Shown: in pieces, positions 53,256 through 53,616 of the stretch
Position numbering within the stretch: the first letter of the stretch is position 1
Layout of the letters: every line of letters begins with the position of its first letter
Assembly: GCA_964518765.1 (NCBI GenBank)
Contig: CAZFJC010000005.1
Span: 54,403-118,402 of the forward strand
DNA: 64,000 nucleotides
Origin: an uncultured bacterium
Lineage (GTDB): Bacteria; Edwardsbacteria; AC1; EtOH8
Direction of reading: 5' to 3'
Position numbers and translations under genes: made by a program
The notes under the pieces: model-generated
What the model was told of the DNA's origin: nothing
The model's input: the letters and a program-made list of their open reading frames with translations, nothing else
Databases searched by the model: none

Positions 53256-53285
53256 TTGACAATAGGGCGATTATTAGTATATAAT
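53256..53285 (+). promoter_or_regulatory. near-consensus sigma70 promoter (TTGACA-N18-TATAAT) upstream of the truncated tRNA copy
   Basis: ggtcaTTGACAatagggcgattattagTATAATtaat, in an AT-rich region also flanked by tgacaatgg / tcattgaca inverted repeats. Confidence 0.45.
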
Positions 53286-53307
53286 TAATATTCTTGGGGT
53301 TTTTCTC

Positions 53308-53360
53308 TGGGGGATCGTCCAACGGCAGGACACGTGGCTCTGGACCACGGTATCGGGGTT
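53308..53360 (+). pseudogene. truncated or disrupted duplicate of tRNA-Gln
   Basis: 53 nt identical to 53500..53552 (acceptor 5' strand through T-stem 5' strand), followed by ~76 nt of unrelated GC-hairpin sequence and a degenerate T-arm/acceptor remnant (CGGGGAATCCCTGTCCatgCCCCA). Confidence 0.55.
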
Positions 53361-53499
53361 CTCAGCCTGACGCCCGGCAAGGGGTCGGGCGGCGGCTGAC
53401 CCGCCGCTTATCATGCCTTATATCATTGCTCAGGCGGGGAATCCCTGTCCATGCCCCATCTCGTTTTTGTTAATCGTCGGAAAACTTGTAAAAAATAAC

Positions 53500-53573
53500 T
53501 GGGGGATCGTCCAACGGCAGGACACGTGGCTCTGGACCACGGTATCGGGGTTCGAATCCCTGTCCCCCAGCCA
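53500..53573 (+). tRNA. tRNA-Gln (anticodon CUG), CCA encoded
   Basis: Cloverleaf by hand: acceptor UGGGGGA/UCCCCCA, D-stem GUCC/GGAC, anticodon stem CGUGG/CCACG with loop CUCUGGA, T-stem CGGGG/CCCUG with loop UUCGAAU, discriminator G. Weaker TTGTTA-N16-TAAAAA promoter just upstream. Confidence 0.9.
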
Positions 53574-53580
53574 GAAAATA

Positions 53581-53616
53581 GAAGAGGCGACCCATTGGGT
53601 CGCCTCTTCTTTATTT
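53581..53616 (+). terminator. intrinsic terminator of tRNA-Gln
   Basis: GAAGAGGCGACCC-attg-GGTCGCCTCTTC followed by TTTATTT. Confidence 0.7.

Follow-up and report, generated by a model that had tools for sequence, protein, structure and literature searches.

A partial tRNA-Gln gene as the probable scar of a decayed homing-type element inside bacterial tRNA genes

A tRNA-Gln(CUG) gene in a stretch of 64,000 nucleotides from an uncultured member of the Edwardsbacteria (assembly GCA_964518765.1, contig CAZFJC010000005.1; the whole stretch is called the window here) is preceded by a partial copy of itself. This upstream half-tRNA is best read as the left scar of a decayed homing-type element that resides inside tRNA genes, the copy in the window being dead. 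We put the probability of this reading as a whole at about three in four, with greater confidence in the identification of the relic and less in the homing mechanism. The reading is carried by the anatomy of the locus, its homology to intact elements, the occurrence of alleles with and without the element, selection on an open reading frame (ORF) and on a conserved insert, and the spread of related arrangements over several tRNA species. Cleavage, homing and co-transcription we infer.

The two copies share a direct repeat of 55 nt with 100% identity (53307-53361 and 53499-53553, a 'c' followed by tRNA positions 1-54), and chance falls far short of explaining an exact repeat of this length. A sequence-only reading of this DNA had noticed the repeat, which is real, but placed it at 53308-53360, one base short at each end. 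The downstream copy is an intact tRNA-Gln(CUG), as that reading held; it is called by ARAGORN and scores 56.8 bits by Rfam covariance scoring, for which the tRNA gathering score is 29. The upstream copy (53308-53458) reaches 17.3 bits on the same scale and is therefore not a valid tRNA, although ARAGORN nevertheless calls one there. Its T-loop is split by 77 nt between TTC and GAA, and after a further 12 nt of T-arm an ORF start begins. These 12 nt form a second exact repeat, GAATCCCTGTCC (53439-53450 and 53554-53565, tRNA positions 55-66), and directly after its first copy the window sequence continues with ATGCCCCA. Of what had been described as a degenerate second T-arm and acceptor, the T-arm stands as the exact repeat, but the supposed acceptor does not, 'CCCCA' being codons 2-3 of an ORF relic. 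The 'atg' within it is not part of an acceptor either but the start codon of a deleted nuclease gene, because the relic aligns with relatives and translates as the two ends of their ORF; the same two ends make up what had been taken for a 41-nt 'spacer with a weak promoter'. In the pseudo-copies of four related loci (L108-L111) the acceptor complement to positions 1-7 is wholly missing from the alignment.

Related loci were gathered with the adjoining gene (51852-53093, minus strand), which encodes a saccharopine-dehydrogenase-like protein, and with the 5' part of the tRNA as a DNA probe. Synteny of genome contigs gave 80 loci, of which only L001 was close enough, its contig ending inside the tRNA. 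In the element-free loci L085, L089, L102/L103 and L106/L107 the same divergent promoter pair is found, and one intact tRNA-Gln lies directly under TTGACA/TATAAT and is followed by a terminator; on comparison of these sequences, a single intact tRNA-Gln under the promoter can be regarded as the ancestral state. In L093, which belongs to the window's species (identical protein and identical 215-nt upstream region), the promoter also runs straight into an intact tRNA, which is weak evidence because this is a short k-mer contig. In L100/L101 the order is promoter, tRNA positions 1-54, insert, GAATCCCTGTCC, ATG, an ORF of 81 codons, TAA, c and tRNA. The neighbouring protein P0015 is identical in L100/L101, which carry the element, and in L102/L103, which do not; the upstream region is identical in L100-L102, and L103 differs by three bases. 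The element therefore appears to be both present and absent within one species. A search with the ORF found 13 close homologs, and four loci were looked up (L108-L111). All four show the promoter, a pseudo 5' part, the insert, GAATCCCCACYCT, ATG, an ORF of 80 codons, a stop, 1-3 nt, an intact tRNA-Gln(CUG) and a terminator, and 12-13 nt of T-arm sequence precede the ATG in all intact elements. Loci L108, L110 and L111 adjoin an aminotransferase/DUF4438 operon resembling that of the window, and L109 adjoins mscL. The 5' part of the pseudo-copy is mutated in the anticodon arm in L111 and L108, so that it is not kept as a tRNA; the earlier suggestion of a tRNA-derived regulatory RNA finds no support in a 5' part that decays in this way.

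The relic is identified by alignment A1 with L100 and L108-L111. Its first ~23 nt fall on the start of the ORF (MPYFVYV...) and its last ~26 nt on the end; ~196 nt of the ORF interior are deleted in the window, and the rest of the layout is unchanged. The relic (53451-53498) reads MPHLVFVNRRKTCKK and a stop, versus MPYFVYV...GKLTKI and a stop in L100. With only 15 codons left by the internal deletion, the element in the window is unable to make the nuclease, and no other GIY-YIG homolog occurs anywhere in the 64-kb window. The window copy is a fossil, at best non-autonomous. The coordinates of its parts are collected in Table 1.

Table 1. Features of the tRNA-Gln(CUG) locus, in window coordinates
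Feature	Position	Strand	Evidence
Host tRNA promoter, TTGACA-N18-TATAAT	53256..53285	+	12/12 consensus; same promoter over the single intact tRNA-Gln in L085, L089, L102, L106
Displaced tRNA-Gln 5' part, 'c' + positions 1-54, ending at T-loop TTC	53307..53361	+	55-nt exact repeat
Conserved palindromic insert ('ins'), 77 nt, between TTC and GAA of the T-loop	53362..53438	+	Homologous copies; covariance model R1
T-loop/T-stem 3' strand, 12 nt, GAATCCCTGTCC, tRNA positions 55-66	53439..53450	+	Exact repeat of 53554-53565
GIY-YIG nuclease ORF relic, 15 codons + TAA, MPHLVFVNRRKTCKK and stop	53451..53498	+	Alignment A1; translation
Intact tRNA-Gln(CUG)	53500..53573	+	ARAGORN; Rfam tRNA 56.8 bits
Intrinsic terminator of the tRNA unit, 14-pair stem (53580-53610), then T tract	53580..53616	+	Same place in element-free relatives

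In its intact form the ORF encodes a protein of mostly 77-83 aa in which a GIY-YIG domain spans residues 3-70; the 81-aa product of L100 matches Pfam GIY-YIG PF01541 with E=2.3e-18. These 77-83-aa proteins consist of the catalytic domain only, with no DNA-binding domain attached. Residues Y17, R27 and H31 never vary and Y6 and E63 hardly do, and these five are taken to be the catalytic residues. Values of dN/dS between 0.06 and 0.17 point to purifying selection on the ORF. Among solved structures the best matches are 1zg2 (BH0048, E=9.1e-13), 1ywl (EF2693, E=4.5e-10) and the structure-specific nuclease SLX1 (E=5.9e-5), and B. subtilis yazA is 45% identical. By these comparisons the nuclease is most like UPF0213 and Slx1, with similarity that is significant over the whole stand-alone domain. 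Searching plasmids and phages with the nuclease by tblastn returned just distant yazA-like matches, and a search of IMG/VR gave 2 loci.

The 77-nt insert is the second conserved part of the element. Its ends are inverted repeats of 9-10 nt, TCAGCCTGA...CTCAGGCGGG, that prolong the T stem, and at its centre lies a conserved GC hairpin, GCGGCGG-CTGAC-CCGCCGC (53389-53407), whose presence the sequence-only reading had correctly reported. Homologs of the insert occupy the same position in L100, L101 and L108-L111 and also occur in units downstream of the tRNA in L098, L100, L108, L109 and L111; all known copies lie in T-arms of tRNA-Gln. A covariance model, R1, built from 10 copies of the insert scores 72.6-107 bits for 11 full-length copies (L098-L111 and the window). 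Downstream copies that are expanded or truncated, in L111 and L109, score 26-35 bits, and a copy in L113 from outside the training set scores 35.8 bits. The model also scores the reverse strand well, since the insert is palindromic, and it finds one copy in the 64-kb window, where a 46-nt piece of the insert likewise has no second match at up to 3 mismatches (0 expected in shuffles). Between loci the insert is 78-96% identical at distances where synonymous sites of the ORF are near saturation; for L100 and L108 the insert has p=0.17 versus pS=0.73 for the ORF. Being far more conserved than the synonymous sites, the insert is a selected part of the element and not a neutral scar. RNAalifold gives the 10 copies a plausible Y-shaped fold, with only 1 pair showing a compensatory change, so that the insert may act either as RNA or as DNA, and Rfam at permissive thresholds returns nothing for the insert. 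Viewed as a miniature inverted-repeat transposable element or insertion sequence, it has inverted ends, no evident target-site duplication and one copy in the window. Metagenome and viral contigs gave no match to the pattern GGTATCGGGGTTC-N60-90-AATCCCTGTCC, which describes any insert of 60-90 nt in the T-loop of this tRNA; the flanks of the relatives differ. The earlier suggestion of an insertion into the T-loop holds in that the 77 nt sit exactly between TTC and GAA, but they are part of a larger element rather than a lone insertion. A nested expansion of ~19 nt (CGCCTGYCCGCC..GGAGGRGA) is found in the loop of the central hairpin at L100:1690-1725 (minus strand) and L111:645-670, in the downstream copy of one lineage and the upstream copy of another, and this shared expansion suggests exchange between copies of the insert.

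The layout also bears on how the tRNA is expressed. The sequence-only reading was right that the strong promoter belongs to the upstream copy, which begins 22 nt after a TTGACA-18-TATAAT site agreeing with the consensus at 12 of 12 positions, and that a clean terminator (14 pairs) follows the tRNA. Its claim that the intact tRNA has a weaker promoter of its own did not hold: a promoter scan of the plus strand shows no promoter-like site ahead of the intact copy. No terminator is predicted in the interval from the strong promoter to the intact tRNA. In intact elements the stop codon of the ORF lies 1-3 nt before the tRNA, which makes it most likely that the tRNA is co-transcribed from the strong promoter and, together with the lack of a predicted terminator in between, supports transcription of the whole unit. 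In the window the pseudo-tRNA, insert, ORF relic and tRNA would now be driven as one unit by the host promoter. The consensus promoter is the tRNA's own, moved 192 bp upstream by the insertion.

A further partial copy follows the intact tRNA and its terminator in L098, L100, L108, L109 (three in a row) and L111. Each downstream unit consists of GGGGTTC, a variant of the insert, GAATCCCTGTCCCCCAGCCA and a second terminator; the window and L110 are without them. Four allele types are thereby found, with an upstream and a downstream unit, an upstream unit only, a downstream unit only, and neither. Exactly these four would be given by repair of a break in the T-loop in which the left end pairs with the pseudo- or the intact donor copy and the right end with the intact or the downstream partial copy, and deletions between direct repeats would yield the same four. 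Each downstream partial copy is preceded by inverted tRNA positions ~40-54 (GAACCCCGATACCAT), a loop of 3-6 nt and the direct ATGGTGGGGTTC; these palindromes lie at L108:3370-3400, L109:3375-3405 and 3525-3555, L111:1085-1115 and L100:1760-1785 (minus strand).

Related ORFs are also found at other tRNA genes. A profile search recovered 3,346 proteins at E<=1e-8, mostly of 79-82 aa and from many phyla, and a tRNA gene adjoins the ORF in 7 of the 8 lineages examined. The copy in Ca. Edwardsbacteria (L113-L118) occurs on at least 24 contigs, always in the spoVG-prs interval, with its ORF 6 nt before tRNA-Gln(UUG). Ahead of this ORF are found a pseudo 5' part, an insert built around the same GCGGCGGCGGA core and what is left of an earlier ORF end; in L113 that remnant lies on the upstream side of the pseudo-copy. 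At L112, from Chryseobacterium koreense, the tRNA-Arg(TCG) gene comes first, then the ORF, and then tandem partial tRNA copies whose anticodon loop contains a perfect palindrome of 20 nt. The ORF of L119 overlaps the beginning of tRNA-Arg(ACG) and has a tRNA fragment and a palindrome before it. The three downstream units of L109, the ORF-end remnant of L113 and the tandem array of L112 are footprints of repeated insertion. The L112 array (L112:1357-2100, JACHFI010000002.1) comprises tRNA-Arg(TCG), the GIY-YIG ORF, a partial tRNA-Arg that has CCTGCCTGCCGGCAGGCAGG in its anticodon loop, a spacer that is repeated, a masked stretch and another partial copy of the same kind; C. koreense is a cultured species and could serve for experiments.

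It is proposed that the intact element, as in L100 and L108-L111, inserts at the centre of the T-loop, between GGTTC and GAATCC, and brings with it, from left to right, the 77-nt GC-rich insert, 12 nt of T-arm, the ORF of 80-81 codons and fresh tRNA positions 1-54. The fresh positions 1-54 would join host positions 55-74 and rebuild an intact tRNA-Gln, whose two parts would thus come from the element and from the host, respectively, and the host promoter would be left with the host's own 5' part beneath it. A single RNA would start from this promoter and run through pseudo-tRNA, insert, ORF and tRNA, and the mature tRNA would be cut out of it. On the analogy of T4 SegB, the nuclease would break tRNA-gene DNA at or near the T-loop motif. 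An element-bearing copy would then serve as the template for repair, pairing through the two tRNA halves, while in the pseudo-copy the insert disrupts the target motif as well as the homology. A more tentative idea is that the nuclease, having no DNA-binding domain, finds its target by structure, such as the cruciform or hairpin of palindromic T-arm or anticodon-arm DNA; alternatively, it may be helped by RNA of the element's own pseudo-tRNA or palindrome. On the same view the element would persist because it restores the tRNA with a fragment that it carries and uses the promoter of that tRNA. In the window, the internal deletion of ~196 nt has reduced the ORF to 15 codons.

Several points weigh against a homing-type element. 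Cleavage and homing would rest on analogy, and the protein, at ~80 aa and without a DNA-binding domain, is unlike SegB or I-TevI. The intact tRNA copy retains an undisrupted T-loop motif, and self-cleavage is not obviously prevented. Recombination between the 55-nt repeats could have removed the element precisely, in which case presence and absence within one species would reflect its loss and not its gain. Most tRNA-Gln(CUG) copies also appear to lie at the same ancestral locus, next to the aminotransferase/DUF4438 operon, and much of the pattern in this clade could be due to vertical descent and repeated loss. The ORF-deleted form comes from a metagenome-assembled contig and was not seen in a second assembly, L092 and L095-L097 breaking inside the repeat. 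Finally, prokaryotic Slx1-like GIY-YIG proteins are found fused or operon-linked to methyltransferases, in one case an ortholog of the tRNA methyltransferase TrmH (PMC1564403), and a tRNA-related role for the host is possible on account of this link.

This last point leads to the strongest alternative, itself unlikely, that the element is a host-beneficial module acting on tRNA or RNA in processing, repair or quality control, the window copy being an RNA, regulatory or leader, that persisted once the protein was lost. Besides the methyltransferase link, it can draw on the strong purifying selection on the ORF, on an insert that is intact and conserved even in the window, and on the constant locus of the Edwardsbacteria copy across its contigs. 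Such a module would nevertheless be dispensable, as close relatives are without it, even one of the same species; in L111 and L108 mutations build up in the 5' part of the pseudo-copy, the window has lost the ORF and retained the tRNA, and nested and tandem footprints of insertion are what selfish elements typically leave.

Less probable still is an attL/attR scar left at tRNA-Gln by an integrase-driven integrative element or prophage that has since been mostly deleted. Transfer RNA genes are classic integration sites, partial copies also lie downstream of the intact gene in five loci (L098, L100, L108, L109 and L111), and L100 and L102 differ downstream of the tRNA. The GIY-YIG nuclease is, however, the only gene carried, and gene calls with Pfam revealed no integrase or recombinase in L098, L100-L102 and L108-L111 or in window positions 53094-53640; the part duplicated in the window is the 5' end, and the whole insertion amounts to 192 bp there and ~390 bp when intact. 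The scar of a tRNA-targeting element had been among the interpretations listed by the sequence-only reading, which described the anatomy correctly and flagged a 5' duplication as atypical for such a scar; it came closest of the options listed, though the element is not an integrase-type island.

Two further explanations merit hardly any credence. A plain tandem duplication of tRNA-Gln, with the first copy decaying after insertions in the T-loop and, of 4 nt, in the acceptor strand, was also on that list and would fit two head-to-tail copies with 55 exact nt and a 12-nt T-arm repeat in common, but no relative has two intact tRNA-Gln genes here and the element-free ones carry one, the intervening sequence shows homology with both ends of the GIY-YIG ORF and with the conserved insert rather than with tRNA flanks, the insert is conserved across loci and under selection, and 55 perfect nt beside a wholly different 3' part do not fit uniform decay. 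A chimeric join at the tRNA repeat would be conceivable in a contig from a metagenome-assembled genome (MAG) when same-species short-read contigs break in the repeat and L093 shows the promoter followed by an intact tRNA, but the arrangement is coherent base by base (insert exactly between TTC and GAA, relic in frame, canonical stop 1 nt before the tRNA), it matches elements assembled independently from at least 6 other samples, and a mis-join would not produce a homolog of both ORF ends.

Other identities were tried and rejected. Against a group I intron, the Rfam matches over 53100-53700 include no intron family even at E up to 10, 7 related loci have none that reaches the gathering score, and with an insert of 77 nt the 3' exon would be 12 nt only. 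A hammerhead-like ribozyme, a T-box or riboswitch, a permuted tRNA and a second promoter for the intact tRNA were considered and dropped.

Contig ends at this locus deserve a comment of their own. The short-read contigs L092, L095-L097 and L105 (Logan) and L001 (MAG) end 30 nt (k=31) or 55 nt into the tRNA. Such ends would be expected from the tRNA 5' repeat or from tRNA sequence common to members of a community, and elements of this kind will often lie at contig ends and hence be under-counted. The same-species Logan contigs, breaking 30 nt into the repeat, neither confirm nor deny the exact arrangement of the window.

The neighbourhood offers some further observations. A 6S RNA (SsrS) at 12100-12279 on the minus strand (Rfam, 86.5 bits) marks the window as bacterial chromosome. 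The 421-aa ORF beside the tRNA has its true start 8 codons downstream, according to a homolog search. A divergent promoter at 53129-53157 (minus strand; TTGACA-17-TAAAAT, 11/12) serves the saccharopine-dehydrogenase-like/aminotransferase/BioY/DUF4438 operon, and this promoter and the leader 'aaacatataattttaccagatt' are conserved nearly base for base in L085, L098, L100, L106 and L108 while other intergenic sequence differs. Downstream of the tRNA, at 53640-56733 on the minus strand, lies an oxidative-stress cluster of a DUF454/YbaN-like gene, catalase, bacterioferritin and a 1-Cys peroxiredoxin. Among the relatives, L100 and L102 are of one species and agree fully in the neighbouring protein and the upstream region, and their sequences downstream of tRNA-Gln are unrelated; the tRNA therefore also marks a larger rearrangement or the boundary of an island. 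The earlier statement that the tRNA is the sole clear plus-strand gene in 64 kb is roughly right by a tally of ORFs: of 37 ORFs with 300 aa or more, 28 lie on the minus strand, and most of the plus-strand ORFs overlap these.

The finding accounts for the odd pseudo-tRNA call in the window, and it matters for annotation in that tRNA finders report such pseudo-copies as genes, as ARAGORN did here. A compact element type of ~0.4 kb, made up of a palindromic insert, a minimal GIY-YIG nuclease and a tRNA fragment, seems to occupy tRNA genes in several bacterial phyla. Homologs of the ~80-aa UPF0213/Slx1-like proteins number in the thousands, in Patescibacteria, Bacteroidota, Edwardsbacteria, Margulisbacteria and others, and we consider it a tentative and rather doubtful possibility that they include a large undescribed class of selfish elements inside bacterial tRNA genes; if so, many 'partial tRNA' calls beside small GIY-YIG genes would be explained. 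If the nuclease does cut tRNA-gene DNA, then the UPF0213 family, whose structures are solved but which has no assigned function, would acquire one, T4 SegB would be matched by a counterpart on bacterial chromosomes, and the protein would offer a test case for site specificity without a DNA-binding domain.

Among known systems, integrase-type islands that target tRNA genes resemble the present element in that partial tRNA duplicates flank the insert and an element-borne fragment restores the gene. They differ from it in that here there is no recombinase, the element is 0.2-0.4 kb long and the 5' part is duplicated in the window. Free-standing GIY-YIG ORFs of fungal mitochondria (e.g., Allomyces atp6, Paquin et al. 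1994) reportedly insert in a gene together with a replacement end, the displaced end becoming a pseudogene. The parallel is close, with a nuclease gene in an essential gene, a duplicate fragment that restores it and a partial duplicate left as the scar; however, the fungal cases involve protein-coding genes, organelle genomes and larger endonucleases, and they have no palindromic insert. Group I introns of bacterial tRNA genes (PMC3984707, PMC13011429) are likewise intervening sequences, sometimes with a GIY-YIG homing endonuclease, but they sit in the anticodon loop, exceed 200 nt and are self-splicing, whereas the insert described here has 77 nt, sits in the T-loop and matches no Rfam intron. 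Splicing of the upstream copy could not give a tRNA in any case, because the 3' acceptor strand is lacking.

The stand-alone GIY-YIG proteins of the UPF0213/YazA/YhbQ and prokaryotic Slx1-like type (1zg2, 1ywl) have the same size and domain as the nuclease of the element, and a 2006 survey of the superfamily describes the UPF0213 proteins neither as a mobile element nor as linked to partial tRNA duplications (PMC1564403). In the full-text literature searched, no description was met of small GIY-YIG genes within bacterial tRNA genes accompanied by partial tRNA duplication, and it is the fossil in the window that exposes this element family. The nearest precedent is T4 SegB, a GIY-YIG homing endonuclease encoded in a tRNA gene cluster, whose recognition site contains GGTTCRANTCC, the tRNA T-loop motif (PMC2330249). 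In both systems a GIY-YIG gene lies among or next to tRNA genes (see also PMC13096335 and PMC2988022), the T-loop motif of SegB is the exact site of the 77-nt insert, distribution is patchy among close relatives, and SegB's own genome also retains cleavable sites. The differences are equally clear, as SegB is phage-borne and lies between tRNA genes, whereas the present nuclease is chromosomal and lies inside a tRNA gene rebuilt with the element's own fragment. SegB has about 220 aa with a DNA-binding region. The putative nuclease here is an 80-aa catalytic domain that is closer to UPF0213 and Slx1 and is accompanied by a conserved palindromic insert.

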